The notes: generated from the sequence alone by a model not told the origin. Numbered from the stretch's first letter, positions 7,168-52,896 are shown. The stretch is 64,000 nt of DNA from Minisyncoccota bacterium (GCA_035548315.1 DASZTF010000010.1:1721-65720), one strand, 5' to 3'. A program made the numbers and translations.

Positions 7168-7190
7168 AATATCCAAAATCTGGATATTGT
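7168..7190. promoter_or_regulatory. perfect palindrome caATATCCAaaatcTGGATATtg in divergent promoter region (candidate operator)
   Basis: 9-bp arms, 5-bp spacer, between divergently transcribed XRE gene and the zinc-ribbon/recombinase genes. Confidence 0.5.
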
Positions 7191-7204
7191 GATACGCTAA
7201 CTAT

Positions 7205-7489: not shown

Positions 7490-7538
7490 AGTCCGTAGCA
7501 AAGCGTAATAAAATGGGGATACCGGGCCCGGTATTTCA

Positions 7539-14223: not shown

Positions 14224-14253
14224 GCTTCCGCTAGTATACCGCGCTCGGGACGC

Positions 14254-15440: not shown

Positions 15441-15445
15441 GTGCG

Positions 15446-15530
15446 GGAGGAGTCGCATAGTGGTTTAGTGCACCGGTCTTGAAAACCGGAGTGTCGCAAG
15501 GCACCGCGAGTTCGAATCTCGCCTCCTCCG
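15446..15530 (+). tRNA. tRNA-Ser (anticodon TGA), class II
   Basis: acceptor GGAGGAG/CTCCTCC, anticodon stem-loop CCGGT-CTTGAAA-ACCGG, long variable arm, T-loop TTCGAAT. Confidence 0.85.
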
Positions 15531-15560
15531 CTTGTAGTGGTGGTATGATATTGCATAGGT

Positions 15561-33711: not shown

Positions 33712-33927
33712 ACCTATGTTTATTATTAGGGGTGTTGATATGGGGAGAACCCAATTTCACGGCTTATTTCCAAGCTATCCTGGCGACTCTCTATTTGATA
33801 ACTCACGGAAAGAGCTGGGACAGCACTGGGGAAACTTTCACCCGACCCCATGGTCCTTAGAAAACCCCTCATTTCTTCCCCACCCGTTTTCATCATTGTC
33901 CGCAGGTTTTCCATACCATTATCCCCA
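33712..33927. promoter_or_regulatory. candidate oriC / DnaA-box region (AT-rich dnaA-dnaN spacer)
   Basis: 216-bp AT-rich spacer with DnaA-box-like 9-mers ttatcccca (33919-33927), ttttccata (33907-33915), ttgtccgca (33896-33904). Confidence 0.4.
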
Positions 33928-35274: not shown

Positions 35275-35361
35275 GCCCCGTCATTATACGCTTGCCGCTC
35301 ACAAGCGAAAGCCCGAGCTTTCTTGCGTACCGGTGGGGAAACTGTTAACATCCTGTGCATA

Positions 35362-35499
35362 ATGGCGAAGCGAACATACCAGCCCAAGAAACGGAAGCGC
35401 GCTCGCACGCACGGCTATCGCAGCCGCGCGACGTCCTCGACGGGTCGCCGGGTCATCTCCCGTCGCCGCCGCAAGGGCCGCGCTCGCCTCACGGTCTAG
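35362..35499 (+). CDS. rpmH: 50S ribosomal protein L34
   Basis: [45 protein letters not shown]; the long ORF-track entry 34387..35499 is antisense to dnaA and only its last 46 codons are real. Confidence 0.85.
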
Positions 35500-35502
35500 C
35501 CT

Positions 35503-35814
35503 ATGCTGAAACGGACCTCCCGCCTCCCGCGGGAGGGCTTTCAGTCTGTCGCAGGGGGAAGGCGCCTTATTGCGCCGCATTTCAGCATTTCCTACCGCCC
35601 TGGGGCTGGCCAGGGGGCCGTGGTGGTGTCTAAGAAGGCCGCGCCCAAGTCCGTGGATCGCCACCTGGTGAAGCGTCGGGTCATGGACCTCATCCGCCCC
35701 CACATCGGGCACGGGGTATCGTTCATCGTCTATGCTCGCAAGGGCGCCGCTGCCCTGCCCTTCCGCGCTATCCGCGGGGAACTTGAGCCCTTATTTGCTA
35801 CACTGCACGTATGA
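35503..35814 (+). CDS. rnpA: ribonuclease P protein component
   Basis: 103 aa basic protein after rpmH; KRRVMDLIRP-type RnpA region. Confidence 0.8.
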   Translation: MLKRTSRLPREGFQSVAGGRRLIAPHFSISYRPGAGQGAVVVSKKAAPKSVDRHLVKRRVMDLIRPHIGHGVSFIVYARKGAAALPFRAIRGELEPLFATLHV

Positions 35815-36563
35815 TCGGCGCGCTCTTCCACACCTACCTCAGCATCCCTATCTATAACCTCCTCGTATTTTTTATCGGCATCATGCCTGGCGGCGATGTG
35901 GGTCTTGCCGTAATCGCAGTCACGCTCGTGGTGAAGATCATCATCCTCCCCCTTTCCTACTCTGCGGTGCGCACCCAGCGCGCGATGAAAGTGATCGAGC
36001 CCGAGCTCGCGGCTATCAAGGAAAAGTTCAAGAACGACAGCGGCGAACAAGCCCGCGAGCAGTTCGCGCTTTATAAAAAGTACAAAATCAATCCATTCGC
36101 AAGTTTCTTCACGCTGCTCATCCAGCTCCCCATCCTGCTCGCGCTTTACTGGGTATTCCGCGGTGAGGCGCTCCCCGCGATCGACGTGACCTCGCTCTAT
36201 TCATTCGTCTCGATTCCGGTCCACATCTCTACACAGCTGCTTGGCGTGTTCTTGGTCGTGGGCAAGAGCATCACGCTCGCGGTGCTCGCGGGCATCACGC
36301 AGTACCTCCAGGCGGTGTTCGCGATACCCACGCCACCTAAGACCAAGAACGGCGGCATGACCGAAGACTTTGGTCGTGCGATGGCGATGCAGGCACGTTT
36401 TGTGATCCCGTTCATCATCGCGCTCGTGTCCTATGAGACTTCAGGTGCCGTCGCGCTATACTTCGTCACGAGCAATATCGTGACACTCTTCCAGGAATTT
36501 CTCGTGCGCAAGCGCCCGCTCATCCCGCACACGGCCCGCACGGTAGAGGCAGTAGAAGTTTAA
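35811..36563 (+). CDS. yidC: membrane protein insertase YidC/Oxa1 (short form)
   Basis: 250 aa, five TM helices, conserved YidC core; rpmH-rnpA-yidC synteny. Confidence 0.85.
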   Translation: MIGALFHTYLSIPIYNLLVFFIGIMPGGDVGLAVIAVTLVVKIIILPLSYSAVRTQRAMKVIEPELAAIKEKFKNDSGEQAREQFALYKKYKINPFASFFTLLIQLPILLALYWVFRGEALPAIDVTSLYSFVSIPVHISTQLLGVFLVVGKSITLAVLAGITQYLQAVFAIPTPPKTKNGGMTEDFGRAMAMQARFVIPFIIALVSYETSGAVALYFVTSNIVTLFQEFLVRKRPLIPHTARTVEAVEV

Positions 36564-37816
36564 AGGCTGTACGCCCAGAGCGTATCATCGCGCTTGTTCA
36601 TGAACACGAGCGTGCTTTCGTTCGCGTCGATCGTGAGGGAGACCGCGTCGATGGGTGCGGAGACGAGCGTGGGCAGGTCGGCGACCTGGGTCGCGACGCG
36701 TGCCGTGAAGTCTATTTTCCAGATGCGGTCGGTGAACGCCGTGGTGCCGAGGTACCAGTCATCGGGAAGCGTGCCCGTGGGCACCGAGACCGGTGACGCG
36801 CAGAAGGCGCTCGCGCCGTCTGGAGCCCACACGCATTTATCAGTGAAAGTAGAGAGCGGAAGTAGCGTCGTGGCGTGGTTACTCGTATCATAGTATGCCA
36901 GACGCACTACGCCACTGCCGTCTACGTAGCTCATGAGGATGCGGGTACCGGACGGGCTCGGCAGCACAGAGAGGCCTTTCAAGGGGCCGAGGATAGAGGT
37001 GAAAACACCCGTCTTTTGGTTCACCAGGAATGCGTAACCATTTAAGTTCGCAGAGGGTTTCGTGTAGGCGACCATTGCGCCTGCGGAGCTGCGTACGGTG
37101 ATAGCGGAAAGTTGCGAGGTAAAGAGTACGGTCGGATTCATGCCGTCGGGCTGCTCGAGGTAGCCGATGGAGCCGGCGCTATTGGGTGAGAGGGTGAACA
37201 CACTCGTTAGGTTCTGCGGAATCACTTGCATGAGGTCTTCGGCGAGGAATGCGCCATCGCTGCCGTCCGCGGGGAGTTCATAGGTATTCACGTGCTCGTC
37301 GCTTCCCTGCCCTGGCGTGATGAAGCGCAAGAACGCCGCGGTGCCATTCGGGAGCCAGCTTACTTCCTGCACGCCCGGTACGGTGTGATTGGTGAGCCGC
37401 GTCGACGCGTTTGACGCGGTTGAGTACTCATACATATTTCCGCTCTCTCGATCGATATAGCGCACCGCCGCGCCCGTGGTGACCTCGCTCGTCGATGCCG
37501 TTGTGCTAGCTACAGGGTCAAGCACGATGAATCCTTTCCCGACCGGTGCATTAGTGACCTGGACCAGTTTCGGTGCGACCTGTGCGGGGATGTTGCCGCT
37601 CTCGCTCGTCCCGGTGTCGCCAGGAGCGCTGGCGTTGCCGGTATTCGTGGCCGCACTGCCCGAATCGCCAAATGGATTACCCGACGACGCGGTGTCCGCG
37701 GTGAGCGTAGGCCCCGGCTTGTAGAAGAAGAAAAAGTACACGCCGGCAATGATCCCGAGGACGACGACCGTAGTGGCGGTGATGGCGACGATTTGTTTCA
37801 TAGCTATGGCTTGCAT
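36560..37816 (-). CDS. hypothetical membrane-anchored extracytoplasmic protein (last gene of T4SS-like operon)
   Basis: 418 aa; N-terminal TM then Thr/Ser-rich beta-rich domain; start overlaps upstream gene. Confidence 0.4.
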   Translation of the reverse strand: MQAIAMKQIVAITATTVVVLGIIAGVYFFFFYKPGPTLTADTASSGNPFGDSGSAATNTGNASAPGDTGTSESGNIPAQVAPKLVQVTNAPVGKGFIVLDPVASTTASTSEVTTGAAVRYIDRESGNMYEYSTASNASTRLTNHTVPGVQEVSWLPNGTAAFLRFITPGQGSDEHVNTYELPADGSDGAFLAEDLMQVIPQNLTSVFTLSPNSAGSIGYLEQPDGMNPTVLFTSQLSAITVRSSAGAMVAYTKPSANLNGYAFLVNQKTGVFTSILGPLKGLSVLPSPSGTRILMSYVDGSGVVRLAYYDTSNHATTLLPLSTFTDKCVWAPDGASAFCASPVSVPTGTLPDDWYLGTTAFTDRIWKIDFTARVATQVADLPTLVSAPIDAVSLTIDANESTLVFMNKRDDTLWAYSL

Positions 37817-38886
37817 TGCGTGTAGAGATCGTTTTGAAGGTCACATCCGAATTGCCCGCCTGCGTGCACGGCGGATTTAATATTTTTTGTTTTCCGGTCG
37901 CGACAAATATGGTCATAGACAGTGCCGGGCGGGGTATTCGTTGTGCATTTTTGATCAGACGCAGAGCACGTTCCCCATACCCCCTGGTCGCTTGTGGACT
38001 CATCGCACATGTAGAAGTTGTATCCCCCGTCGTAATACCACTGGTCGCCCTTCGTGCCCTTATAACAATCGATGTAGTTGTAGCTGCCCTCAGCACATTT
38101 ATATGGCGGATTTACCGGGGTGTACTCTCCCGTCTGCTGGTCTCGGCAGACGTAACTTGCTGTCCCACCGCCTGCTTCACACGTATTCTTCTGGGGCTCA
38201 CAGCTGTCTTGGTTACATCGTAGGTATTGGTGGCCGTCATCGCCATTTTGAGCCCCGCTCGTGCCGTCGTTGTTGCTTCCGGCACCTGGACCAGCGGACT
38301 GGTATCCGCTGTTGGAGCCGTTTACGTTCACTGTGAGTCCACTGGTGTTGATGTTCAAAGTGAGTATGGCTGGGTTGATGAGCTTGAAGACGAGGTACGG
38401 AGAGAGCACGAGCACGAGACCCAAGACCGATGCCCCGATGAGGTGTCGGGCCTCTTCCTTGCTCGTAAGGCTTTCCGCGAGCATGTAGGTGATGCCCGCG
38501 CGCGCGAGCTGGAGCACGGCGATTACTACAGCGATGCCGATGCAGATGTAGTAAATCGAGTTGAGTGCGACCGGGAGGCCTGCGCTTGGGTTGAAACTGG
38601 TAAAGACCGGGATGTCGGTAAGCGGGACAAATGGCTGGTTGTCTCCCACCTGAGTATTCCCGCCGGGTGTTTGGGTGCCGCCACCTCCTCCCGGTGCGTC
38701 ACCCCACGGCGTACAGATGCCCGTCGTGTTACCGGGTGTTTTGTAGCAGCCGTACTGGATATTGCCCTGGTCGTCACACTCTTCATCATTGGAGCAAGTA
38801 CCATTTGGTCCCACTGCGAATACCGCGGTCGGTAGAGAGAGCGCGAGTGGGAGGCACAGGAGCAGCGCTAGGAGTAATTTTTTCAT
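37804..38886 (-). CDS. pilin-like / Cys-rich surface protein (VirB2-like hydrophobic hairpin plus Cys-rich C-terminal domain)
   Basis: 360 aa; signal peptide, two adjacent TM helices, then a C-terminal domain with more than 20 Cys. Confidence 0.4.
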   Translation of the reverse strand: MKKLLLALLLCLPLALSLPTAVFAVGPNGTCSNDEECDDQGNIQYGCYKTPGNTTGICTPWGDAPGGGGGTQTPGGNTQVGDNQPFVPLTDIPVFTSFNPSAGLPVALNSIYYICIGIAVVIAVLQLARAGITYMLAESLTSKEEARHLIGASVLGLVLVLSPYLVFKLINPAILTLNINTSGLTVNVNGSNSGYQSAGPGAGSNNDGTSGAQNGDDGHQYLRCNQDSCEPQKNTCEAGGGTASYVCRDQQTGEYTPVNPPYKCAEGSYNYIDCYKGTKGDQWYYDGGYNFYMCDESTSDQGVWGTCSASDQKCTTNTPPGTVYDHICRDRKTKNIKSAVHAGGQFGCDLQNDLYTQCKP

Positions 38887-39884
38887 AGGCCGAAGATGCT
38901 ATGGCTGGTCGATTGCCCAAACTGGACGGTCATTTCTCGAGACGCGCTGACGTAGCTTCCGGGGAACGACGCGGTCGCGGATACCGTCGCGCTTCCTGCA
39001 CCCGTGCCCGTAGGGCGCAGCGTAATGGTGGGTTGCGAGACGCTTGGAGTGCCATTCACGCTCCAATTAATTGTGGGGAAGGTCGAGAATGAGTACCCTA
39101 CGGCGCGGAAGCTGTCTTCGTCTCCCACGAGCGAGTAAAAGTCGCCAATTGCGGTGTCGAAATTGGGGCCGATGAGCGGCCCATCGCGGTAGAACAAAAT
39201 AGTGGGATCGGTAGGTGCGAGTGTGGCGCTCGCGCTCCCGGTGATGCTGCCGTCCTGGGTCGAGACCGTAACCGACACGGTCTCATCTCGGTACTGCATC
39301 GGGGCGACCACACTCACCGAGGACTTCCCAATGCCCGAGTTGCTCTCGAGCGCTTGGCTGTCGACATGCCAGGAGTAGACCAGTTTCGCAGGGTCAAGCG
39401 GGGCGCCGTTTGCGCTCGTACGCAGGTCCGCCATGGCTACGAAGCGGACTTCCCCCTGTATGGCTACTTGCGCAGCGCCTTCGTAGAAAGGATGCGTCGT
39501 GGATACGGGTTCCTCTATGAGGGCGACGTTCGTGGGGTGTACGGTGGCAGTCGTTTGGTAGCTGCCCTCGGGTGAATTCGCCGACACCGTGATAGTGTTG
39601 CTCGATCCCGCGCCGCCGGCGGTAAATGATGCGCTCCCCCCGCCCGTGCTCTGGGCCACTACTTTCCCATCTACCGATATGGTGACAGTCGCGCGTGCGA
39701 GGTCGATGAGCGTACTCTGCGGTGTCACCGTCACCGTCTGATAGGGTGCCGGATATTGCGGCGAAAGGAGAATAGTAAGCGGCTGTGCACCGAGCACTTG
39801 TGCATGCGTTGCGCTCGTACTCAAAAGAAAGAGCAAGCTCAGCAGCCCCGCCGTTTTCCTCATGGATGTATTATACAGCCCCAT
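38883..39884 (-). CDS. hypothetical secreted protein
   Basis: 333 aa with signal peptide MRKTAGLLSLLFLLSTSATHA. Confidence 0.4.
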   Translation of the reverse strand: MGLYNTSMRKTAGLLSLLFLLSTSATHAQVLGAQPLTILLSPQYPAPYQTVTVTPQSTLIDLARATVTISVDGKVVAQSTGGGSASFTAGGAGSSNTITVSANSPEGSYQTTATVHPTNVALIEEPVSTTHPFYEGAAQVAIQGEVRFVAMADLRTSANGAPLDPAKLVYSWHVDSQALESNSGIGKSSVSVVAPMQYRDETVSVTVSTQDGSITGSASATLAPTDPTILFYRDGPLIGPNFDTAIGDFYSLVGDEDSFRAVGYSFSTFPTINWSVNGTPSVSQPTITLRPTGTGAGSATVSATASFPGSYVSASREMTVQFGQSTSHSIFGL

Positions 39885-39901
39885 ACTCCATGAATAGGCA
39901 A

Positions 39902-40738
39902 TTATCTACCGCGACCACGAGCACGCACGAGCTGTTGACTTGGATCGGGTGGAGGAGGTGCTTCCGGTGGTAGTCGCATCCCGTACTTATTGCGCCGCGG
40001 TTCGATTTGGCGTCGCATCGCTTCGAGCTCTTCGGGGGTACGTGAACTCCGGGGCGGGGGGCGTAGCGCCGTTCTTGTGCGCATCGGCGTAGCCGCCTTG
40101 CCATGGTTTCCACCAAACGGGTTGTCGTTTGCTGGTGCGCCCGCCGGGGGGCGCTGTGGAGACGGGGTATGCTGGTGCGTTGTACTCGTGGCGGGAGAGG
40201 CGCTTGGCTTAGGGAGTGCACGTCCGACACTGCCTCCTACTCGCGCACCGCCCGCACTCGAGGCAAGCCCGCCGGCTGCCTTCCCTGCTGCACCACCCAC
40301 CGCGGAGGCCGCGCCCGCTACCGCACCACCGATCTTCGCAAGCCCTCCGAGAATCCCTGAGCCACTTGAGGCGTATGCTTTAACGATCATGTAGAAAACC
40401 GTGGGAGAAGTGAAGGGGAAATCATCGATCTCGGGCACGAGGTCTGCTGCCGAGACGCCGAGCGTGAGCAAGAAATAGGCATTTGAATTTTTTGGTGATT
40501 TATAGATCCCCACCATCCAGAGTCCACCGAAGACGACGACCACTTCCACCACTGATATGTAGAACGAGAGGACTACACTCAGCGGTATTCCGACCTCAGG
40601 AATAAGTTGGACAAAGAAAACCGCGCCCTTCGCGAGGTCGCACACGAGCGCCACAATGAAGAACAGCCAAGCGAACGGGCTCACGCGGTTATCGTTTGCG
40701 GGGTCGAGGCTGTTGTCGTTTGCCGATGACGGAGGCAT
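39902..40738 (-). CDS. hypothetical polytopic membrane protein with Gly/Ala-rich tail
   Basis: 278 aa; three to four TM helices then GGAAGKAAGG repeats and Pro-rich C-terminus. Confidence 0.4.
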   Translation of the reverse strand: MPPSSANDNSLDPANDNRVSPFAWLFFIVALVCDLAKGAVFFVQLIPEVGIPLSVVLSFYISVVEVVVVFGGLWMVGIYKSPKNSNAYFLLTLGVSAADLVPEIDDFPFTSPTVFYMIVKAYASSGSGILGGLAKIGGAVAGAASAVGGAAGKAAGGLASSAGGARVGGSVGRALPKPSASPATSTTHQHTPSPQRPPAGAPANDNPFGGNHGKAATPMRTRTALRPPPRSSRTPEELEAMRRQIEPRRNKYGMRLPPEAPPPPDPSQQLVRARGRGR

Positions 40739-40741
40739 GGC

Positions 40742-42565
40742 TTATGCAGCGCCGCCGGATTCGAGCCGGCCCTTCTCGCGCTGGATGGAGAGGAGCTGCG
40801 ACGGGTCGGAAGTGATGATCTGGTCCTCGGTGTAGGAGGCGACGATCTTAATTGCGACATGTTTGAGTCCTGCGAAGAACAGCCCCTCCCCTACTCCGGA
40901 CTCAAGGAGCAGATACTTTTCCTCATCGGTGAGGTTGAAGGTCTGCTGGAGCACATCGATCGTGGTCGGTGACTGCTTGAGCAGCAGCTGGATCGAGGAG
41001 TTCGTGAGGATCGGGCGGCCGTAGGAAGAACGCAGGAAGTCTTCCACGTCCTGCGTGATCGTGGAGACGCCGAGATAATATTTGCGGCCGCGCTTCGCGA
41101 GGCTGTAGAGGAAGGAAGCGGTATCTTCCGACTTCATCATCCACCAGGCTTCGTCGATCACGAGGAGGCGCCTCTTGAGCTCGCGGCGGATCGCATTCCA
41201 GATGTAGTGCGTGATGATGTACATCGCGACCGGTTTGAGCTCGTCCTCCATGTCGCGCACCGAGAACACGATGAACTGGCGATTGATGTCGATGTTGGTC
41301 GCCTGATTCATGAATCCGGCCCACGTACCGCGGGTGTACTTGCTCAAGCGCTCCACGAGCGATTCCGATCCCTCCATGCCCGAGAGCACCGACTCAAAGT
41401 CGGAGAGGAGGGGCGGTTCGACGCCGGTGAAATCCCGGTCACCGGTGATGTCCTTGAGCGCGTATGTTTCAGTGATCGCGCGGTCGATGATCGCGTCTTC
41501 TTCTGGCGTGAGGCCCCCGAGCATGATGCGGAAGAGGCCGACCAAATTGATGATGTTGTTGCGCAGGATATCGCCTGGCTCCTCGTCCTCGCGCACCGCA
41601 GGAAGGTCGAACGGATTGATGTGATGCTCGGACGAAAGCGAGATATTGAAGTTGCGCCCGCCCGCCGCTTCTGCGAGGTTCTCGTATTCGCGCTCGGGAT
41701 CGATCACGATGACGTCGGTATCGAACATCAGGGAACGCAGGATCTCGAGTTTCACCGCGTACGATTTACCGGAGCCCGACTTCGCGAAGGTCACGGAATT
41801 GTAGTTCTCAAGCGAGAACCGATCGAAAAGGATGAGTGAAGAATTGTGACGGTTGATGCCAAAGAGGATGCCGCGGTCGCTCGTGAGGTCAAAGGACACG
41901 AATGGAAAGTACGATGAAAGTGAGGATGTCTTTTGTTTGATGTCGACTGCAAGCTCGTCGTTGCCCAGCGGGAGCGTTGAGCGGAACCCCTGTTCCTGCT
42001 GGAAGAGGGCGGGTTTGGTGTAGACAAGTCGTTGACTTAGCGTGCCAGAGATTTCGCTTTCTACTTTGTCGAGTTCTTCCTTAGAATCAGCGTAAATCGT
42101 GATGTAGAGGCCAACGTCGAATACCTTCTCCTGCGCTTGCTGGAGCTCATCGCGCAGCTGCTCGATATTGCTATTTGCCGCTTCGAGCATAGGATCGCGG
42201 ACGATGCCCTTAGCCTCTTTCTCGTTGATCTGACTCTCTACTTCTGCAACTTTCTTCTGGAGCTGGCGCAACATAACACCGGTCTCTACAGGGTGGATGA
42301 AGATGCCTATATCCATCACCTTGTCCGTGTTGATGATCGGCGAGAGCCAGCTGTCCGCGAGGAACGCTGGATACGAGATCGTGTACAGCGTGCGCGCGAA
42401 TTTCTCCCCGAGCTCGAGCTCGCGCGCGCCCACTTTAAGCGCCGCCGGTGCGATCATGTCGGCGAGCTCGAGCTCCCCCTGCGCGTAGATGTCTTTGGGG
42501 AGCACCGGCGCTACGGGCGGCGTTTCGTCTTTTTTATTGCGGTTGAGGAAATCGAGGAGTGCCAT
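40742..42565 (-). CDS. VirB4/TraC-family type IV secretion ATPase (ATPase domain part)
   Basis: 607 aa; Walker A AKSGSGKSY, Walker B RLLVIDEAWW, conserved VirB4 C-terminal motifs; starts 1 codon after an in-frame TAA. Confidence 0.8.
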   Translation of the reverse strand: MALLDFLNRNKKDETPPVAPVLPKDIYAQGELELADMIAPAALKVGARELELGEKFARTLYTISYPAFLADSWLSPIINTDKVMDIGIFIHPVETGVMLRQLQKKVAEVESQINEKEAKGIVRDPMLEAANSNIEQLRDELQQAQEKVFDVGLYITIYADSKEELDKVESEISGTLSQRLVYTKPALFQQEQGFRSTLPLGNDELAVDIKQKTSSLSSYFPFVSFDLTSDRGILFGINRHNSSLILFDRFSLENYNSVTFAKSGSGKSYAVKLEILRSLMFDTDVIVIDPEREYENLAEAAGGRNFNISLSSEHHINPFDLPAVREDEEPGDILRNNIINLVGLFRIMLGGLTPEEDAIIDRAITETYALKDITGDRDFTGVEPPLLSDFESVLSGMEGSESLVERLSKYTRGTWAGFMNQATNIDINRQFIVFSVRDMEDELKPVAMYIITHYIWNAIRRELKRRLLVIDEAWWMMKSEDTASFLYSLAKRGRKYYLGVSTITQDVEDFLRSSYGRPILTNSSIQLLLKQSPTTIDVLQQTFNLTDEEKYLLLESGVGEGLFFAGLKHVAIKIVASYTEDQIITSDPSQLLSIQREKGRLESGGAA

Positions 42566-42568
42566 AGA

Positions 42569-43201
42569 TTAAGTGCGTGAGAGGCGGATAGGATTCTCGA
42601 GCTCGCCCAGGTTGAACGAGCGGTATAAGAGCTCGATGATTTCTTCGGTACCGAGCGCGGCGGCGCGCACGCCCGATTGCGCGAGGCCACCCGCCACAAG
42701 CGACATGCGCTGTTCGAGCTGGATGCGGTGCTCTTCAAAGTCGTCCGAAGTGTTCGTTTGGGTCGCCGGTCCGCGGTTGAGGAAAGGAATTGCACTTTTA
42801 ACCGCCGTTACCACGGCCGGGGTATATGGGACCACCACGTAGAACGTCTTGGTCATGATATTTGCTTGCTCTGCAAATCCCCGCACGAACTGCTCGTACT
42901 CACGGATCTGGATGCGCATAAGATCAGTTTGCTGCTTATCCTCGCGTGCGCGTAGCAGCTCGAGGTAGGGGCGGATGTCCATTTTGCGTGAGTGCACCAC
43001 GATCTCTACGGAAAAATCGAGCGTGTTGAGGAAGTTCTGGAAGCCGCCGATGATACCCTTCTGTTCGTCGTCTGATTTGAGGGCGAAGTTCACGGACGAG
43101 CACATCAGGATACCGCGGTAGCCGCCCTCTTTGAGGATAATAGTGCCGCTCCGGACTTCTTTTACCGGGACGAAGGCTTGGGCTGGTTGAGAAGCAGGCA
43201 T
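42569..43201 (-). CDS. VirB4 N-terminal-domain-like protein (split from the ATPase by an in-frame TAA)
   Basis: 210 aa; pattern KEVRSGTIILKEGGYRGILMCSSVNFALKSDDEQ resembles the N-terminus of Gram-positive-type VirB4 proteins; same reading frame as 40742..42565. Confidence 0.5.
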   Translation of the reverse strand: MPASQPAQAFVPVKEVRSGTIILKEGGYRGILMCSSVNFALKSDDEQKGIIGGFQNFLNTLDFSVEIVVHSRKMDIRPYLELLRAREDKQQTDLMRIQIREYEQFVRGFAEQANIMTKTFYVVVPYTPAVVTAVKSAIPFLNRGPATQTNTSDDFEEHRIQLEQRMSLVAGGLAQSGVRAAALGTEEIIELLYRSFNLGELENPIRLSRT

Positions 43202-43204
43202 ACG

Positions 43205-43633
43205 TTATGGTTGTGGGTTCTCGCGGTCCTGGATATCGAGCGACCAGGCAAGGTCATGCAGTTTCCCTCGATCAAGTGCGATTGCTGGGCGTGCAGGGGC
43301 AGCAGGCACCGGATTCTGCGGGAGCGTCGAGGGTGCTTTGTCTGTCTTCGGCTCCTTACGCCAGAGGTAGAGGCGGCTCCCCGTGATGTAGTAGTTGAAT
43401 CCAGCTTCGAGGATGTCTTCGAAGGGCTTGTTGTTCACTTTGTAGAATGCGAGTGCGCCCGCGAGTCCTGCGATCGGGATCGCGACCACGATCGCGATGA
43501 CGAGGGGGAGATAGAAGAAGGCAATCGCGCACATACCGACGCCGCCCGCCACGTAGATGAACTGCTTCAGCGTAAACGGGCCAAAAATTTTGTCTTCCAC
43601 CTCAATGAACTGCGGCACTTGGTATTCCATCAC
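43205..43633 (-). CDS. VirB3-like small two-TM protein
   Basis: 142 aa, two TM helices, immediately upstream of VirB4. Confidence 0.4.
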   Translation of the reverse strand: MMEYQVPQFIEVEDKIFGPFTLKQFIYVAGGVGMCAIAFFYLPLVIAIVVAIPIAGLAGALAFYKVNNKPFEDILEAGFNYYITGSRLYLWRKEPKTDKAPSTLPQNPVPAAPARPAIALDRGKLHDLAWSLDIQDRENPQP

Positions 43634-43691
43634 TCACTAGTATAGCAAGATGCGGGCCGTTGCCCGCATCTGGCGACTGCGTGTATTTCGA

Positions 43692-44282
43692 TTAATGGCC
43701 GCCGTGATTTCCTCCTCCCCCGCTGTGCCCGCCGCCGATGCTCACGCTCGCGCCGCCCACGGCTTTATTAATGTATTGGAGTAGATTCGCAATGATCCAG
43801 GGCGATGCAAGTGCGATGCCTACTGGTGCGAGAAATTTTCCTGCAATAATAGCAGCGCCCTTGATAGCCGCGCCGCTCACGAGAGGGTGCCCCACAAGCC
43901 ACGTGGAGACGAAGTTCACGACCCCCATGCCAGCCGTGCCCTCCATAAGCATGAACGCTGCCGCGCCTTCTACCACCACCCCAGCACCGAGCAACATCCC
44001 GGAGGCTCCCTTCGTGGCTTTCCAGATAGCCTTCCCCATTGTCTTCTCTTTCGGCGCGTCAGCGATATTTTTCGCCTGCTCTTGGAAGAAGTTGGGCGGC
44101 TTGCGATGTTCGTGGCCTGCCTGCGGGCCTTCATGGCGGCGGAGCCGCTCGAGCCTTGAAGCGGCTTCGGCTACGTCTGCGGCGCTCCGGTTGACGTTCA
44201 CCGGAGCTGTCTCACCCATACGAGAAGGGGAGCTGGTATGTGCTCGTTCTGCGGAATTTGTCGCTGGGCGTTCTGCACTCAT
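43692..44282 (-). CDS. hypothetical membrane protein (possible VirB2-like pilin)
   Basis: 196 aa; Gly/Ala-rich hydrophobic core with two TM segments. Confidence 0.3.
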   Translation of the reverse strand: MSAERPATNSAERAHTSSPSRMGETAPVNVNRSAADVAEAASRLERLRRHEGPQAGHEHRKPPNFFQEQAKNIADAPKEKTMGKAIWKATKGASGMLLGAGVVVEGAAAFMLMEGTAGMGVVNFVSTWLVGHPLVSGAAIKGAAIIAGKFLAPVGIALASPWIIANLLQYINKAVGGASVSIGGGHSGGGGNHGGH

Positions 44283-44297
44283 GGCCCAATCCTAGCA

Positions 44298-45035
44298 CTA
44301 TTCTGGCGCTTCGCGGTACGGGTCGACGCCGTATGACTTGAGTACATCGTGGAGCGCAGACTTGTTAGCTGCGGACCCGGTTTCGATGGGCGGCATAGCT
44401 CCGGGAAGATTCTCGGGCGGCATGCCGGTACGTGCCGCTGGTGCTGGCGGCATGGGAGCGCGTGGCGTTGGCGCAGGCATCGGGGCTGGTGCCGGCCGCG
44501 GTGCGGGAGGCGGTGGTGGTATCGGTCGCGGCGCTGGCGGGGGTACCACTGGTTGCACAGGAGCGGGTGCCGGAGCCATCGTAACTGCGGGCGGCGGGAC
44601 CATCGGCTGGGGTGCTCGCGGTGCCGGTACGGGCGTAGGTGCCGCAGGTGGTGGAACGGCTGCTGCGGATACTGGTGCAGAAGCGGGTTCTTCTGCCTCA
44701 GGTTCAGCTGGTGCGGGCGGTGCAGCCATCACTTTATCGTGGAGCGGCTTGAATATTTTCGTATTGAGCTCCGCGATGACAGCCTTTGCGATCTGGGCGT
44801 CTACGTCACGAGACACCAATTCCCCGAGTATCTCGGTCGGTGTGACGAGCCCGCAGAGCATATAGCTTGTCGCTTGGGAAAGCGCGCCGGTCGTGTCGAC
44901 GTGGAGATTAAACTGCTGGCCAATGGCTTGGACATCAGCATTGAATTCCTTACTGAGCAGGTATGCGCGCACGGTTTCCGGCAATTTGCCGAATGCTTCT
45001 AGTAACTGGTCTTGTGAGAATGTAATCATGGCCAT
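44298..45035 (-). CDS. hypothetical protein with extended Pro/Ala-rich linker
   Basis: 245 aa; globular N-domain then ~100-aa PAPAP-rich region. Confidence 0.4.
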   Translation of the reverse strand: MAMITFSQDQLLEAFGKLPETVRAYLLSKEFNADVQAIGQQFNLHVDTTGALSQATSYMLCGLVTPTEILGELVSRDVDAQIAKAVIAELNTKIFKPLHDKVMAAPPAPAEPEAEEPASAPVSAAAVPPPAAPTPVPAPRAPQPMVPPPAVTMAPAPAPVQPVVPPPAPRPIPPPPPAPRPAPAPMPAPTPRAPMPPAPAARTGMPPENLPGAMPPIETGSAANKSALHDVLKSYGVDPYREAPE

Positions 45036-47239
45036 CCACCTATGAGACCTGACTGGAGGTTCGTATCTTTATCAAAGAAAGCATCAAGCTCCTTTCCTGC
45101 GGGGGTACCTCGCTTTTTCAACAGAGCAGTCTTCATCTTTGCAAGTTGAGCCTTATTGAATTTTGATTTCACCAGCGCAGCATTCACGTCAGGGGCGTTG
45201 AAGGTATCAAGCAGTTCGGAGTTATCTGCGATTGTGCTTGCCTTCACCTTCATCTTATCCTCGGCCGTCAGGTTTTCAAAGAGAGCAACGGCATCAGCAT
45301 GCTTAGCGGTTCCGATCCAGTTCTCCACGCGACCTGCTTTGGAATTCTGCTTCGCGAGCTGGCGGACCTCGCGCGAGACGTTATTGCTCTTGGCCACGAA
45401 CTCATTCTGCTCGTCACTAAACAGACTTTCTTTCTCGCTGTTTGAAGACGCGATGATTTTAGAGAAGAGTCGGCTGTCGTACTTCGCGAGGAGCTCAGCG
45501 TCCTTGGTGCCGAGGTCGCGCAGGCGCTTCTGGAGGTCCTTGCGTTTATCATCCGGCATCGTGTCAATGTCGACGTTCTTAAGATAGTCGAACGATCCAA
45601 ACCGGCCACGACTAAGCGAGTGCTGCGCTTCCGGAGACACGTCCTTGTCGTTCATGAGTTTGTCGTACGTGTCGGCACTGAGGATCTCGCCGAGCATCTG
45701 GAGCTGCGCGTCGTTGCACTTGGTGATGGTCTCCTTGAGCGTCGAGAGGCTCATCTTCTGGGCGATCTTCTCCGCCAAGTCTGCACGGCCGGCAGCGAGT
45801 GCTTCCCTAAGCTCTGCTGCTTCCGCCGCATGCTTTGAATGATCGGCAAACTGCTTCTTCTCCTTCTGGTAGTCGTCGTATGAGGTATGGCCACCCACCT
45901 TTGCCTTCGCAGGAGCCTTGAGGGCGCCGTAGATAGCCTGGTCAGCTCCCGTGAACTTGAGGACGGCCGCGGTGCGATTGCCCCACTTCGAGCGCTTCTT
46001 CTTATCGCGACCCACCCAGTTCTGGACGCGCTCAGCGCCCTTATTGCCAAGCCAGCTCACCGGCCGGCTCACCAGTGCGAACGGATACGAGACCGCGCTC
46101 GTGGCCATGCCGATCGCGAACTGGGCGCCGATAGCGCCGAGCTGCTTTGCCGACATGAGCGCAGCGACGAGGAATCCGATGATCACGGCGAAGATCACTA
46201 CTGATCCAATTGCGGTGACGTTGCCGTAGGCGAGTGCGTTCATGAGGTTCACGTTCTGCCCCGCGATACCCTGTGCTACTTTAAGCCCCACGAGCACGAG
46301 GAGTATATAGATGGGCGCGAAGAACGCCTGGGAGAGGAGTTTATCCCACCACATGTGCGCGTATTTCTCGAGCGGCGGCACCGCGAGCCCGGCGAACCCG
46401 AGCGGCGACAGCACCATGAGGAACGCGAGCAGAATGCCGCGTGCCACCAGCATGACCACACCCGCAAGGAGCACCACAGAGAGTATCGTCACGAATATCG
46501 CCATGCCGATATACGCGATGCCCCAGTGGGTGTGGTCGGGAGAAGCGCCCTCGTTACTCGTGTTTGCCGAGAACGTACTTGCGATACCCGAGAGCTGGAA
46601 CACCGCGCCCGAAATGCCGCTGCTACTCCCCCCGCTCGCACACTGTTGCTGGGTTCCACTGGTACAGGTCTGGCTCGCCTGATTGTAGAGGAGCGCGGCG
46701 AATGCGTTCGCGGTATCGATCACCGCTTCCGACGCGAGCAGACTGAAATTGAGCAGGATTGCAAAGATAATGAGGCGCGGTAGCGTCTTCTTTACTTCGT
46801 AGCCGTGTATGTCGAGGATCGTCGCGACGCCAAGCATCACGAACCCGAAAATGAGGATGATGTTCGCGACGTCGCGCAGCACGCCCCAGCCCGCAAGTAG
46901 TCCCGCAGAATTGCCGAAGTAATCGCCGAACTGGAACACCGTATAAATAATGACCTCATTGAAGAGCGCGCCGACCATATAGATGAGTAGGTTCGCGATG
47001 GAGAGGACCACGAGTCCGATGCCCTCGATGAGGAGACCGAACGTCCAGTCGGCGGCTTTCCCCGCGAGCCAGCCGAGAAAGTCGGCGTGCGCAGTGTGCG
47101 GTATGCCGAAGACAAAGAGGACAAGTATCAGAGCTGCTGATGCGCCGAATACCGAGCGGAAGATCGCTGAGGTGCCGCGGACCGTATCGAGTATGGCGAG
47201 GAGTTTTGCTTTCATAGTATTAGCCGCCGCATTGCGCAA
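45026..47239 (-). CDS. VirB6/TrbL-like polytopic membrane protein with long cytoplasmic C-terminal domain
   Basis: 737 aa; at least 7 TM helices in the first ~400 aa, charged coiled-coil-like C-terminus. Confidence 0.55.
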   Translation of the reverse strand: MRNAAANTMKAKLLAILDTVRGTSAIFRSVFGASAALILVLFVFGIPHTAHADFLGWLAGKAADWTFGLLIEGIGLVVLSIANLLIYMVGALFNEVIIYTVFQFGDYFGNSAGLLAGWGVLRDVANIILIFGFVMLGVATILDIHGYEVKKTLPRLIIFAILLNFSLLASEAVIDTANAFAALLYNQASQTCTSGTQQQCASGGSSSGISGAVFQLSGIASTFSANTSNEGASPDHTHWGIAYIGMAIFVTILSVVLLAGVVMLVARGILLAFLMVLSPLGFAGLAVPPLEKYAHMWWDKLLSQAFFAPIYILLVLVGLKVAQGIAGQNVNLMNALAYGNVTAIGSVVIFAVIIGFLVAALMSAKQLGAIGAQFAIGMATSAVSYPFALVSRPVSWLGNKGAERVQNWVGRDKKKRSKWGNRTAAVLKFTGADQAIYGALKAPAKAKVGGHTSYDDYQKEKKQFADHSKHAAEAAELREALAAGRADLAEKIAQKMSLSTLKETITKCNDAQLQMLGEILSADTYDKLMNDKDVSPEAQHSLSRGRFGSFDYLKNVDIDTMPDDKRKDLQKRLRDLGTKDAELLAKYDSRLFSKIIASSNSEKESLFSDEQNEFVAKSNNVSREVRQLAKQNSKAGRVENWIGTAKHADAVALFENLTAEDKMKVKASTIADNSELLDTFNAPDVNAALVKSKFNKAQLAKMKTALLKKRGTPAGKELDAFFDKDTNLQSGLIGGWP

Positions 47240-48827
47240 GCTGCTTCAGGTAGTCGAGAAGCGTCTGCAGGTATCCCGTGCCCCCGCTCCCTCCGGTGGT
47301 GTCTCCTGACTGTATTTGCTGCGCCTCTTGGTGGGCATTCGCTATGTCGGTATTGCTTGGGGTTGCGGGGCTCGCAAGAAACGCCTGGAATTCAGTCGAA
47401 ACTTGGGTGATACTCGGCAGACTTGACGTCACGGTAGAGAGTCCGGTGCCAGCGCCTGCGAGCGCCGCCGTCGCATCATTTGAGATCTTCTGCAGTCCAG
47501 CTATCGCCGTCGCTGTCTTTGCCTGCTCGGCCTGGATCTGGGTAATGATGCCCGCGATGCCGTTCTCGGTGGTAGAGCCGGTGTTGTTACATTGTCCTGC
47601 GGCGAGTTTACCCTGCTGCGCGGCCGTGAGAACGGTGCCGAGGTCAGTCTGGTATTGCTGGAGTGATTGCAGCTCGCTGTTAATAGACGTCGCAAGCGTA
47701 GCGTTTTCGGTGGAGGTTGCTTGCGCACCCGTGATCTGGCTTGGGTCAGTCGCGCGGGCGAGATAGCCGGAAGACGAAACACCCGAGAGACCAGTGCCGC
47801 CGAGCACCTGTGACACGAGCTGCGAGAGCAGCGCACCGATCACCTCATTGAATTCATCTGCCGTGACGAGCGTGTCGCCCTGGATGCCGAGCGTCTTGTT
47901 GAGCTGTGCCTGAATTACCGAGCCCGGTGTCTGTATGGTGCCGGTAGCACCGTCCTTGGTGGTGCACGTCTGGGCAGTGGTGCCATCGAGCTGCGGGTCT
48001 ACCGCGCAGTGCCCTTCCGGGGGGTCGACACACGCAAGCGACCCGGCGCAGTCATCGTCGGTGTGGCACGAGCCGCCTTCATTTGCACCACCACCACCAC
48101 CGGTCGCGTCACCGCACCAGGAAAGGAATCCCTGGCCCCAGCTTGCCTGGGTTGTGTGCTGCGCTTGTGCCTTGTCGATCTGGGCCTGGAGCGCAGAGGC
48201 AGCGACGAGGCGCGCGCCGAGCGGATTATTCTGTGGGTACTGGCTTGCGGCATACCACGCACCCCACCCACCCTGCGAGAAATTACCTGCAAGGAATGCG
48301 CTGTCGTTGCTCGTGATTTTGTTGAGTCCATACGCGATCGATGTGAAGAAGCCCGTCTGGCTCGAGCCAAGCGCATACTGCTGCGCGGTTGCTTGTGCCA
48401 CCTGGGATTGAAATGGTGACTTGAGTGCGCTGTTGGAACTCAGCTGGCTGATGAAGCTGTGCGCGGTCACGTCCGCGACCTGGGTGAGGAATCCCTGGAA
48501 GTTCGTGATGAACGACGGTGAACCTTTGAAGCCCGAGTTGATCCAGTTCACCACACTTTTGGTCATCATCTGGATAGCTATCTTCCCGATCGTCCAGCCA
48601 AGTGTGTCGAGACTGATGCCGGTGCCGAGCGGTCCTTTGCGTGCCTGATACGCAGCCGCGAGTGTAGTATTAACCGCGAGGTTAGCCGGATCGAGCGTAA
48701 CGCTGCCCGGAAGGGTGATTACGGCGTCTACGCCAATTGCGTACGCAGGGCGCGGTGCGGTCACGATCGAGCCACCGAGCGTCGCGAGCATGAGGACGAT
48801 GAGCGTCGTGCGCGTGAAGTACGTCAT
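47220..48827 (-). CDS. large hypothetical secreted protein (Thr/Gly/Ala-rich, Cys cluster)
   Basis: 535 aa; signal peptide ...SIVTAPRPAYA; internal cluster CGDATGGGGGANEGGSCHTDDDCAGSLAC. Confidence 0.45.
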   Translation of the reverse strand: MTYFTRTTLIVLMLATLGGSIVTAPRPAYAIGVDAVITLPGSVTLDPANLAVNTTLAAAYQARKGPLGTGISLDTLGWTIGKIAIQMMTKSVVNWINSGFKGSPSFITNFQGFLTQVADVTAHSFISQLSSNSALKSPFQSQVAQATAQQYALGSSQTGFFTSIAYGLNKITSNDSAFLAGNFSQGGWGAWYAASQYPQNNPLGARLVAASALQAQIDKAQAQHTTQASWGQGFLSWCGDATGGGGGANEGGSCHTDDDCAGSLACVDPPEGHCAVDPQLDGTTAQTCTTKDGATGTIQTPGSVIQAQLNKTLGIQGDTLVTADEFNEVIGALLSQLVSQVLGGTGLSGVSSSGYLARATDPSQITGAQATSTENATLATSINSELQSLQQYQTDLGTVLTAAQQGKLAAGQCNNTGSTTENGIAGIITQIQAEQAKTATAIAGLQKISNDATAALAGAGTGLSTVTSSLPSITQVSTEFQAFLASPATPSNTDIANAHQEAQQIQSGDTTGGSGGTGYLQTLLDYLKQLAQCGG

Positions 48828-49837
48828 GGGGTGGTAGCGGCCGCAACCTGCGCTTCAGCGACGTTTGTGAGATGGAAGAACGAGTGGCCGGGGTCCGTGT
48901 CTGTGAGTGTCACTCCGTCGGCAACAAACACCGCGTTCATTGTCTGGAGGGCGGTCGCGAGCTGCGCCGCGTCATCGGGGTACTGTTGGAGTCCGAGCAT
49001 TGCGCGGATGGGATCATTCGTCACCGATCCGAGGTCGGTAATGGTAGACCCGAGCTGCGCCATCGCATTCACCACTGCAAGGTGCGCTGCGGCTGCTTCT
49101 TCGGGCACGGGGACTTTTACTGCGGCTTGCGCGATCTTTGCATACGCAGCGCCAATTTCCTGCACATGGGCAAGTGCTGTCGAATCGTTCTTCTCCACTG
49201 CGTCGCTGAAGTAGGTCAGTTCGTCATAGGGGAGCTGCACGGTATTGCCGGCGAACGCGTTGTCCATGCCCGCTGCGTAGGCTTTGAGCACATCGGCACC
49301 CTGCCCTTTTACTATCGTGTCGCTCGTACTGTAGGCAGACGTGTGCAGGCGGCTCGCTTCAAGCTCCGTGATAGCGTCTTGAACAAACGACTGCATTTCA
49401 TCTGAGGTTGGGGGTGTTGCGCCGCGCTGATTCATGTAGGTGCTAAAGAACAGCTGGGAGAACTGATCCGTAATAGACCCAGCTGCTGCTGTAGGTCCGG
49501 GCACGGTCTGTGTTTTTGGCGTATGGGCGGTCGCCGCAGTGTTCGTATATGTCGGGGTGACGAGTCCCTGCGCCACTGCTTGGCTGTCAGTCACACTCGC
49601 ACGCACGGAGTGCGCGTTATTGGGGTCGGTGCCGTAGAGGGTTTCTTCCCAGTCGGGGAGGCCGTCGCCATCGCTGTCCTTTGCGGCGTAGGCTTTGAGG
49701 AGTTCCTGTGTCGATTCAGCGCTTGCTGGTGTGGAGAGCGAGAGGGTATGGCCTGAAAAGTAGAATGCGCCGACGATAAGCACTACCGCAACTACAAGCG
49801 ATAGTCCAATCGTCCTCGATCGTGTGTCAGGTGCCAC
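48824..49837 (-). CDS. hypothetical membrane-anchored protein with DSDGDGLPDWEE calcium-binding-like motif (GTG start)
   Basis: 337 aa; N-terminal TM; thrombospondin-type-3-like DxDxDGxxDxxE motif; first gene of the operon. Confidence 0.45.
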   Translation of the reverse strand: MAPDTRSRTIGLSLVVAVVLIVGAFYFSGHTLSLSTPASAESTQELLKAYAAKDSDGDGLPDWEETLYGTDPNNAHSVRASVTDSQAVAQGLVTPTYTNTAATAHTPKTQTVPGPTAAAGSITDQFSQLFFSTYMNQRGATPPTSDEMQSFVQDAITELEASRLHTSAYSTSDTIVKGQGADVLKAYAAGMDNAFAGNTVQLPYDELTYFSDAVEKNDSTALAHVQEIGAAYAKIAQAAVKVPVPEEAAAAHLAVVNAMAQLGSTITDLGSVTNDPIRAMLGLQQYPDDAAQLATALQTMNAVFVADGVTLTDTDPGHSFFHLTNVAEAQVAAATTP

Positions 49838-49883
49838 GGCGAATACGTATAAATAGTATCACGCAAGTCGCTTAACAAGCCCT

Positions 49884-50678
49884 TCATTGTGCATTACTAC
49901 GCGAGGTTAGAAGCTTTTCTGAAAACGATTGCCAGGTTTTGAGTGAAAGGTCTTCCGCCCGGGCCTTTTCGGGTATCCCCGCTGCGGCAAATGCATTCAA
50001 AATCGTTTCTCGGGTTGCAATGTCAGTGAGGTTACTTGCCAAGAGCTTGCGCTTATGTGCAAATCCGGCCCTGACGACCTTGAAAAAGTGGGTTTCCGCG
50101 TGGCGCGAGGCAAAGGGCGAGCGAATATTTCGTATAGAAATGACTGCGGAGTCCACATTCGGGGCTGGCTTGAACGCGCCGCGCGGCACCGTGAACTCGT
50201 ATTTGGGTACCCCGTACACTTTCACAGAAATCGAGAGCAAGCTTTCTTTTTTACTCCGCGCGATTCTTTCGGCAACTTCTTTTTGCACGAGCAGTGTCAT
50301 CGAGGCCGGCTTGTGGTCAGCGGTAAGGAACGTGCGGATGATCTCCCCCGTGAGGTAGTACGGAATATTTGCGACGAGCGCATAGGCGCCAGTAATAGAT
50401 GAAGGGTCGAACGCGCGGATGTCGCTCGCGATAAGTGTGAGCTTCTTTTCTTTGATCTCATGCGCGAATGTTTCTTCGAGCACATCGACTAGCTCCGTGT
50501 CAGCTTCCACGGCGATCACGTGCTTCGCGCGCGCGAGAAGTGGCTTCGTGAGGAGTCCGGTGCCCGGCCCGATTTCAAGCACGGTGTCGTGTTCCTCGAT
50601 GCCGCTAGCAAGCGCGATGCGCTCAGCCGTCTGCGCGTGCATGAGGAAGTTCTGCCCGAGCGACTTTTTAGCCTTCAT
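49884..50678 (-). CDS. rsmA: 16S rRNA (adenine1518/1519-N6)-dimethyltransferase
   Basis: 264 aa; LGQNFL start and SAM motif VLEIGPGTGLLT. Confidence 0.85.
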   Translation of the reverse strand: MKAKKSLGQNFLMHAQTAERIALASGIEEHDTVLEIGPGTGLLTKPLLARAKHVIAVEADTELVDVLEETFAHEIKEKKLTLIASDIRAFDPSSITGAYALVANIPYYLTGEIIRTFLTADHKPASMTLLVQKEVAERIARSKKESLLSISVKVYGVPKYEFTVPRGAFKPAPNVDSAVISIRNIRSPFASRHAETHFFKVVRAGFAHKRKLLASNLTDIATRETILNAFAAAGIPEKARAEDLSLKTWQSFSEKLLTSRSNAQ

Positions 50679-50680
50679 AG

Positions 50681-52612: not shown

Positions 52613-52896
52613 CGCTTCACTATACGCTATCGCTGAAAAAGCTAGCAAATAAGCCGTATTTTTATCCCTTCCCCGCCTGTCCACACGGAGTGTCCCCAGT
52701 GGTTGACCCGGGTCTTCATCTCCGCTACACTTTGAGGATTGCCTGACACGGATGCACGAAAGTGGCTTAGGTAAGCCATAGTTTACGGAAGAACGACTCT
52801 CGACCCTACCTGCGTATCAATTTTCACCCCAAACTGTTCCGCGCGACTGCAAAAGGCAGCAGCAGAACTGCATACTGGTTCGGAGGTGTTACTCTA

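Follow-up and report, generated by a model that had tools for sequence, protein, structure and literature searches.

A 64-kb stretch of DNA from a Minisyncoccota bacterium (GCA_035548315.1, DASZTF010000010.1:1721-65720), referred to here as the window, carries between positions 36560 and 49837 a block of twelve open reading frames (ORFs), all on the minus strand and named g1-g12 in the order of transcription (from 49837 to 36560; Table 1). The block is an ordinary copy of the already published type IV secretion system (T4SS) of Patescibacteria and no new kind of system. Its genes overlap by 4 nt or are separated by gaps of 2-58 nt, and their base composition (GC at third codon positions 0.57-0.77, overall GC 0.57-0.60) is like that of the neighbouring core genes. 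The NCBI Prokaryotic Genome Annotation Pipeline (PGAP) gives the same gene run for this metagenome-assembled genome (locus tags VHC20_00410-00460), with slightly different starts for g12, g3 and g4, and names the product of g11 'pilin' (HVX90110.1) and that of g8 'DUF87 domain-containing protein'. An initial annotation, made from the sequence alone, had recognised the same twelve tightly packed, co-directional genes directly downstream of rsmA-uvrD on the same strand, and on this ORF calls, PGAP and synteny agree. Its statement that most components are unannotatable went too far, since five of the twelve can be given a family and three more a fold or a motif.

Table 1. Position of g1-g12 and of other features in the window.
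Feature	Position	Strand	Description	Basis or remark
g1	48824-49837	-	337 aa, GTG start; N-terminal membrane anchor or long signal peptide, Ala-rich extracytoplasmic domain	
g2	47220-48827	-	535 aa, secreted, mostly helical	Signal peptide ending AYA, followed by IG
g3	45026-47239	-	Extended VirB6/TrbL-like polytopic protein, 737 aa	729 aa from PGAP start 47215
g4	44298-45035	-	245 aa, soluble	No hydrophobic segment; PGAP start 45029
g5	43692-44282	-	196 aa, Gly/Ala-rich small membrane protein	2-3 hydrophobic segments
g6	43205-43633	-	PrgI-family (VirB3-like), two-helix membrane hairpin	Pfam
g7	42569-43201	-	TrsD-like, detached N-terminal ~180 residues of CD1110-type VirB4	NCBIfam
g8	40742-42565	-	VirB4-family ATPase, monoderm mating-pair formation FATA (MPF-FATA)/CD1110 type, motor	NCBIfam, Pfam, BLASTP
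g9	39902-40738	-	278 aa, small polytopic membrane protein, Gly-rich then Pro-rich tail	Hydrophobic segments at 19-69
g10	38883-39884	-	Secreted or anchored, about three immunoglobulin (Ig)-like beta-sandwich domains	N-terminus signal-peptide-like
g11	37804-38886	-	VirB2/TrbC-type pilin core, residues ~85-175, two membrane helices	
g12	36560-37816	-	N-terminally membrane-anchored extracytoplasmic beta-propeller	PGAP start 37801 (413 aa)
rsmA/ksgA	49884-50678	-	Directly upstream of g1	
uvrD	50681-52684	-	Upstream of rsmA, same strand as block	
yidC	35811-36563	convergent with block	Directly downstream of block	4-nt overlap with g12 end
dnaA	33928-35274		Beyond yidC, rnpA and rpmH; dnaN next	~1.3 kb from block end
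LysM + M23 peptidase	52897-53964	+	Outside block, divergent from uvrD	
PilM	13144-14223		Type IV pilus gene	
PilB/GspE	24883-26553		Type IV pilus gene	
HerA-like ATPase	2717-4531			
NurA	4534-5721			
Druantia DruA	5725-6882			
Large serine recombinase	7539-9173	+		

Related genomes were sampled at one per species, giving 80 loci from Kaiser-, Nomura-, Taylor-, Campbell- and Zambryskibacteria and other Paceibacteria; family hidden Markov model (HMM) counts are out of 81 sequences, these loci plus the window, and gene order was judged where the contig reaches far enough. The motor gene of the block is g8, and its earlier assignment to the VirB4 family is borne out by a match above the cut-off to the NCBIfam model conju_CD1110 (E=4.5e-115, 385.6 bits against a cut-off of 325, profile positions 182-733). 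It also matches P-loop_TraG (1.2e-24), AAA_10 and DUF87 of Pfam, and BLASTP aligns it over nearly its whole length (query residues 34-573) to TrsE of the staphylococcal plasmid pGO1 (1e-39). The Walker A (AKSGSGKS at 261) and Walker B (LLVIDE at 467) motifs are intact. More than 8000 homologs were found at E<1e-10, and the best 120 are all from Patescibacteria/Paceibacteria, about 607 aa long and 81-89% identical to g8; its affiliation to the Patescibacteria VirB4 proteins is read from these best matches and the profile score rather than from a formal tree.

Residues 11-161 of g7, the gene just upstream of g8, align to positions 5-155 of the same conju_CD1110 profile (E=6.6e-6). As g8 takes up positions 182-733, g7 and g8 together correspond to one VirB4 protein, split after its N-terminal ~180 residues as in the TrsD/TrsE pair of pGO1. 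The mycoplasma VirB4 model VirB4_plasma of NCBIfam also matches g7 (E=2.1e-7), and similarity to TrsD is weak both with the model NF041427 (E=0.015) and by hhalign with the pGO1 protein (E=0.008); a search of the PDB sequences with the g7 profile found nothing. The g7 HMM matches 79 of the 81 sequences at 45-71% identity. The third gene of this group, g6, passes the Pfam threshold for PrgI (PF12666; E=4.6e-12, 46.8 bits, cut-off 27) and has an N-terminal block, YQVPQFIEVEDKIFGP, that is almost invariant among 75 sequences; it was not significantly similar to pGO1 TrsC by BLASTP. Its two-helix hairpin and family match uphold the proposal of a VirB3-like protein, whereas the position first given to it, directly upstream of virB4, does not hold: g7 intervenes, and in 75 of the 80 loci the g6 ortholog likewise stands two genes upstream of virB4.

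The membrane platform of the system would be provided by g3, which had been noted as a 737-aa VirB6/TrbL-like polytopic protein. Seven hydrophobic segments lie within residues 1-365 and are followed by a charged, hydrophilic C-terminal domain of ~370 aa. Pfam TrbL is covered at positions 17-213 of 215 with a weak score (E=0.0049, 17.1 bits), and support for the assignment comes through the orthologs: nine of 44 aligned sequences match TrbL (best 1.9e-7), one matches TrbL_4, and hhalign of the family against pGO1 TrsL gives E=7.5e-4 on a conserved R..L..LM..SP motif. These similarities make it likely, if not proven, that g3 is the VirB6 component.

The pilin gene g11 encodes a signal peptide, a short Cys-rich insert (4 Cys), the pilin core and then a tail of 185 aa. 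The pilin-like hairpin of the initial annotation stands, as does a Cys-rich domain behind it, but the more than 20 cysteines reported there come down to 18 in the whole protein and 12 in the tail. Among 45 aligned syntenic orthologs, 37 match T4SS_pilin (PF18895; best 5.9e-11) and 18 match TrbC/VirB2 (PF04956). Searching the PDB sequences with the family profile retrieved VirB2 (8cue) only at E=2.1, and hhalign with pGO1 TrsB, of the 'CagC family', was not significant (E=0.15). Across orthologs (L001-L075) a constant core of ~92 aa is followed by a C-terminal tail of anything between 7 and 297 aa, with a mostly even number of cysteines (2 to 16). This pattern suggests that the tail is an extracellular domain, fused to the pilin, that evolves fast and is held together by disulfide bonds.

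The other genes encode mainly envelope and surface proteins. A single hydrophobic segment at 9-27 precedes the feature of g1 that had been described as a calcium-binding-type motif, DSDGDGLPDWEE. The motif lies at residues 54-65 and is a Pfam TSP3_bac repeat scoring above the cut-off (E=1.4e-6); the TSP3-type calcium-binding motif as a whole spans residues 54-75, and at least half of 33 sequences retain its pattern D.D.DGL.DW.E...GTDP.N. Matches to g1 were found by tblastn in 33 loci, always just after rsmA. The next gene, g2, belongs to no Pfam or NCBIfam family. Its AlphaFold2 (AF2) model (predicted local distance difference test score, pLDDT, 71; predicted template-modelling score, pTM, 0.42) shows helices, a Cys-containing beta insert (237-300) and a coiled-coil hairpin (373-459). 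A block WINSGF.GSP.FVTDL is conserved in 90 homologs, and the HMM matches 48 sequences (47 loci and the window), always directly upstream of g3. Some orthologs carry additional F5/8-type-C or Ig-like domains, and g2 is a candidate tip or adhesin component. A VirB5/TrbJ-like identity for g2 was considered and rejected: the few homologs that match DUF4141 (PF13605) do so only over the signal peptide, in most cases with scores that fall short of the cut-off, and the AF2 model has no fold match in the PDB.

Between g3 and g6, homologs of g4 are present in 49 loci after one HMM iteration. The protein has a conserved N-terminal domain of ~100 aa, a linker with 22% proline and a C-terminal DPYRE motif, and scans of Pfam and NCBIfam returned no family. 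With one iteration, homologs of g9, whose exact sequence is annotated as 'hypothetical protein' VHC20_00425, appear in 34 loci between virB4 and g10; in about 25 loci the slot is empty and g8 abuts g10. Together with g5, g9 accounts for the small membrane proteins that had been reported. The HMM of g10 matches 80 of the 81 sequences, its family profile picks up the Ig-like domains of phage T4 Hoc in two stretches (E=5.9e-5), and its orthologs show weak matches to BiPBP_C (18 of 55), Cadherin-like, PKD, Ig_3 and Big_2. Finally g12, the last gene before the convergent yidC, has an AF2 model of pLDDT 88.6 and pTM 0.79, with a helix (2-31), a disordered linker and an all-beta domain (78-418). Foldseek matches this model to WD40/TolB-type propellers in the PDB (E about 1e-9) and the family profile matches TolB (E=7e-4); 68 of 81 sequences are matched by its HMM. 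Three large proteins had been credited with signal peptides, and this fits g2, g10 and g11, while g1 and g12 are anchored in the membrane by their N-termini and show no clear cleavable signal peptide. Six accessory genes, g1, g2, g4, g9, g10 and g12, are conserved in most of the related Paceibacteria loci.

Gene order is shared widely, as the synteny comparison proposed at the outset confirmed. By tblastn and HMMs, almost every contig that extends far enough shows the arrangement uvrD-rsmA-g1-g2-g3-g4-(small ORF)-g6-g7-g8-(g9)-g10-g11-g12, followed by convergent yidC and by dnaA, in as many as 80 species; up to 65 loci have retained the flanks, and the HMMs of g11 and g3 match 71 and 53 of the 81 sequences, respectively. 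Since as many as 80 other genomes carry the orthologs in this order, the arrangement is not due to chance and these are real genes. The locus is a vertically inherited chromosomal feature and not a mobile element. In the distant group of loci (L037-L080), median identity is 73% for g8, 52% for g7 and 47% for g6, against 54% for DnaA, 48% for UvrD and 42% for YidC, and it falls to 24-30% for g1, g2, g3, g10 and g12. Within this group g8 is 72-75% identical where DnaA is 52-57%, UvrD about 48% and YidC about 42%. The VirB4 ATPase is more conserved than DnaA, an unusually strong constraint for a T4SS ATPase. Such a gradient of identity fits diversifying pressure on the parts that face the host, around a conserved motor.

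The family to which the locus belongs has been described by Quinonero-Coronel et al. 2025 (Microb Genom 11:001409, PMC12102498), whose text reports, for 3,035 Patescibacteria genomes, a monophyletic VirB4 clade nested in MPF-FATA that follows the class-level phylogeny. According to that text, TrsD, PrgI/VirB3, VirB6 and VirB2-like pilins (PF04956/PF18895) are encoded near virB4, linked type IV coupling proteins (T4CPs) are almost lacking, relaxases occur in only 103 of the 3,035 genomes and rarely close to virB4, and in Paceibacteria and Microgenomatia the locus adjoins dnaA, dnaN, rnpA, ksgA and rpmH. The window block shares an MPF-FATA VirB4 with an adjacent TrsD-like gene, PrgI/VirB3, a likely VirB6 protein and a PF18895-type pilin, no relaxase or T4CP nearby, and a chromosomal place beside dnaA, dnaN, rnpA, rpmH and ksgA in a Paceibacteria host. 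The Paceibacterota source, the published component set and the neighbourhood of dnaA all support the earlier suggestion of a non-conjugative T4SS for a surface structure or host interaction, of the kind proposed for episymbiotic bacteria with small genomes. Differences from known relatives lie mostly in the accessory parts. The system of Southlakia epibionticum (SEML1_0006-0019) has an array of six pilin genes, and peptidase or lysozyme genes directly downstream of virB4; the window has only one pilin gene, whose product ends in a long Cys-rich tail, and no such genes at that place. The texts of PMC12102498 and of Wang et al. 2023 (Cell 186:4803, PMC10633639), figures and supplementary tables excluded, do not name g1, g2, g4, g9, g10 or g12.

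Among conjugative systems, the nearest order is that of pGO1/pSK41 (TrsA-TrsM), in which TrsC (VirB3)-TrsD-TrsE (VirB4) corresponds to g6-g7-g8 and a TrbL-family protein is present, as is likely in the window (g3). However, pGO1 is a plasmid with a relaxase, the VirD4-like T4CP TrsK, the CHAP hydrolase TrsG, a topoisomerase III and a single-stranded DNA-binding protein, none of which is in the block, and it lacks the VirB2-type pilin and surface-protein set found there. Archaeal Ced and Helicobacter ComB combine a VirB4-type ATPase with a VirB6-type protein (and a VirB2-like pilin) without relaxase or T4CP, and they import; the likeness is a functional analogy only. ComB requires the diderm VirB7/9/10 core, and g8 does not classify as a CedB-type ATPase, as it aligns to that model in the P-loop only (E=1.7e-8, 33.6 bits against a cut-off of 700). 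A further difference is that the Saccharimonadia T4SS is essential although ComEC-dependent transformation is dispensable: comEC can be lost in Southlakia epibionticum, as a 2025 FEMS review (PMC12857230) notes.

No relaxase, VirD4/TcpA or VirB11 was matched by Pfam or NCBIfam among the window ORFs of at least 150 aa, in keeping with the original remark that these are missing and that PilB/GspE lies elsewhere. Since neither a coupling protein nor a relaxase was found near the locus, the system probably does not conjugate. For the relaxase this holds across the 64 kb; oriT, the origin of transfer, was not searched for as such. An ordinary conjugative system would be expected to show a relaxase or T4CP next to the block, and none was found either here or at the syntenic loci, where uvrD/rsmA on one side and yidC/dnaA on the other enclose a block without integrase, relaxase or T4CP. 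Nor do Pfam and NCBIfam scans of the block detect a recognisable effector or toxin domain.

Together, these results suggest, with a probability of about 0.8, that g1-g12 form a non-conjugative, relaxase-less Patescibacteria T4SS derived from monoderm MPF-FATA machinery that has lost its DNA-processing parts, and that it likely serves as a host-contact conduit. By analogy with studied T4SSs, g6 and g7 would dock a hexameric g8 ATPase at the membrane beside the g3 platform, and g8 could then extract g11 pilin, inserted through Sec/YidC, and polymerise it into a VirB2-type pilus or tube. The wall-crossing, host-contacting part may be built or decorated by the extracytoplasmic proteins g1, g2, g10 and g12, which evolve fast, together with the tail of the pilin. 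A conduit for host contact is the most likely role, in which uptake of host macromolecules would be more likely than injection of cytoplasmic effectors. Several observations count against so unified a picture. VirB8-like (NTF2-fold) and VirB1-type (CHAP/SLT) genes have no Pfam or NCBIfam match in g1-g12, where the folds of g1, g4, g5 and g9 are unmodelled. The window copies of two components are sub-threshold on their own, g3 for Pfam TrbL and g11 for PF18895 (E=0.09), and the g3 profile finds no VirB6 match among the PDB sequences. The g2 model has no fold match in the PDB by Foldseek (best E=0.15). For g5, no homolog is detectable in any locus even by position-restricted searches. A terminator scan of 35500-53200, with only 4 of 26 terminator-like sites on the operon (minus) strand, was uninformative and leaves a single transcript unsupported. 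In about 17 loci with enough upstream sequence g2 and g3 are not near g6, which makes g1-g5 and g6-g12 two separable modules rather than one obligate operon.

The last point concerns a subclade (L017-L033, L036, L078) in which the g2 and g3 HMMs match nothing within 10 kb upstream of g6 (at ~8.9 kb), and in which unrelated genes replace the g1-g4 module, including the VirB6-like gene, upstream of VirB3-TrsD-VirB4. It raises the question of whether the twelve genes are a unit at all, or whether g6-g12 are the T4SS core and g1-g5 a separate envelope module that happens to be adjacent. The largest gap within the block (58 nt, 43634-43691) lies at the boundary of the two modules, before g6, and a TATACT that ends 6 nt upstream of the GTG/ATG start of g6 could be an internal promoter or mark a leaderless start. 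Two separate units are nevertheless improbable, as g3 is the VirB6-like component that a T4SS needs, the two modules adjoin each other in the same direction wherever else the upstream sequence is long enough, and in the split lineages the missing module may lie elsewhere in the genome. Less probable still is ordinary conjugation, with a relaxase, oriT and coupling protein located beyond the limits of the window. The VirB4 family is otherwise found on conjugative elements, the inspection covered 64 kb, and VirD4-like genes are present elsewhere in most Patescibacteria genomes according to the text of PMC12102498, a point that also bears against the preferred reading. Yet the locus is fixed beside dnaA in up to 80 species between core genes, its GC content is that of the chromosome, and both the rarity of relaxases and the class-level phylogeny of VirB4 described above speak against conjugation.

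If the genes do form a T4SS without conjugation, the rivals differ in what the machine moves. In the VirB and F systems, VirB2, VirB3, VirB4 and VirB6 are associated with making the pilus, and the recognisable parts of the block are this very set; with its variable, apparently disulfide-rich pilin tail and its Ig-like and beta-propeller surface proteins, the product could be an adhesive pilus or surface fibre that attaches to the host and translocates nothing. This is rather unlikely, for the genome already encodes type IV pili for adhesion (PilM and PilB in the window), type IV pili and T4SS are each essential in Saccharimonadia (PMC12857230, PMC10633639), and a VirB4 more conserved than DnaA hints, though only suggestively, at more than attachment. 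The same machine might also work as an exporter, with which the epibiont injects effectors or toxins into or onto its host in the manner of effector-translocating T4SSs. The text of Wang et al. 2023 (PMC10633639) proposes that the Saccharimonadia system 'may instead export proteins', and that of PMC12102498 points to exporters without T4CP, Ptl and Brucella VirB; the block itself encodes several secreted or surface proteins (g1, g2, g10, g12). Export is an unlikely function here all the same, since the window has no coupling protein for recruiting cytoplasmic substrates, the block has no recognisable effector or toxin domain, and a monoderm has no periplasmic pool on which a Ptl-like system could draw.

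Import by a host-contact conduit has been proposed for the published system, namely of host DNA or other macromolecules (text of PMC12102498). A 2026 preprint (bioRxiv 10.64898/2026.06.21.733656) describes host-penetrating tubular structures and host RNA uptake in a cultivated member of the phylum. Could the Paceibacteria version go beyond a reduced conjugation machine and be a feeding tube decorated with receptors, through which the epibiont takes in RNA, DNA or other macromolecules from its host? If g11 polymerised like conjugative pilins, its disulfide-bonded C-terminal domain would coat the filament on the outside, and g10, g12, g2, g1, the Pro-rich g4 and g9 would take the places of VirB8, VirB1 and VirB5. 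In this specific form the idea is tentative and on balance doubtful.

The interest of the locus lies in the standing of the system as one of the few machines that nearly all Patescibacteria have in common. The only strain tested cannot do without it: in the text of PMC10633639, transposon sequencing shows the equivalent cluster, pilins included, to be required for epibiotic growth of Southlakia epibionticum (Saccharimonadia). The T4SS is also the leading candidate for how Patescibacteria, which are unable to make nucleotides, amino acids or lipids, obtain host material. The window provides a clean, complete example from Paceibacteria, the least-studied large class, and makes small additions: a class-wide set of accessory genes, a variable and apparently disulfide-rich pilin tail, an ATPase more conserved than DnaA, and an apparent head-on orientation. 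At the position of g5, the closest genome carries an ORF of equal size but no significant similarity, and the exact g5 sequence is absent from the protein collection searched; g5 is fast-evolving and its status as a conserved component is uncertain.

The orientation follows from the position of the replication origin. The cumulative GC skew has a weak minimum at 32-36 kb, and dnaN, dnaA, rpmH, rnpA and yidC (32611-36563) point likewise to an origin just left of the block; DnaA boxes are not more numerous than by chance, and the position is read from gene order and the weak skew minimum. With the origin there, g1-g12, rsmA and uvrD on the minus strand would be transcribed toward it, head-on with replication. 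Such an orientation is odd for a block thought to gain from origin-proximal dosage; the layout is kept in about 60 loci. A promoter scan of 35500-53200 found promoter-like sites at chance level, which does not settle the transcript structure.

Some other genes of the window may be mentioned. The text of PMC12102498 reports VirB1-like matches with M23/LysM domains near virB4, mainly in Paceibacteria; the peptidase with LysM and M23 domains beyond uvrD could be a wall hydrolase of the T4SS or simply a cell-division enzyme. The type IV pilus genes lie apart from the T4SS block, and several unannotated ORFs surround PilM (11753-15793). The HerA-like ATPase was considered as a hidden coupling protein and set aside: it is paired with NurA, lies 32 kb away and matches T4SS-DNA_transf only marginally (20.3 bits), and its best models, HerA, VirB4 and a CedD-type ATPase, all score far below their cut-offs. 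The region it opens (2717-9173), which also includes DruA and the serine recombinase, has a low GC content (0.52-0.53 against about 0.58 elsewhere) and looks like an integrated defence or mobile island.

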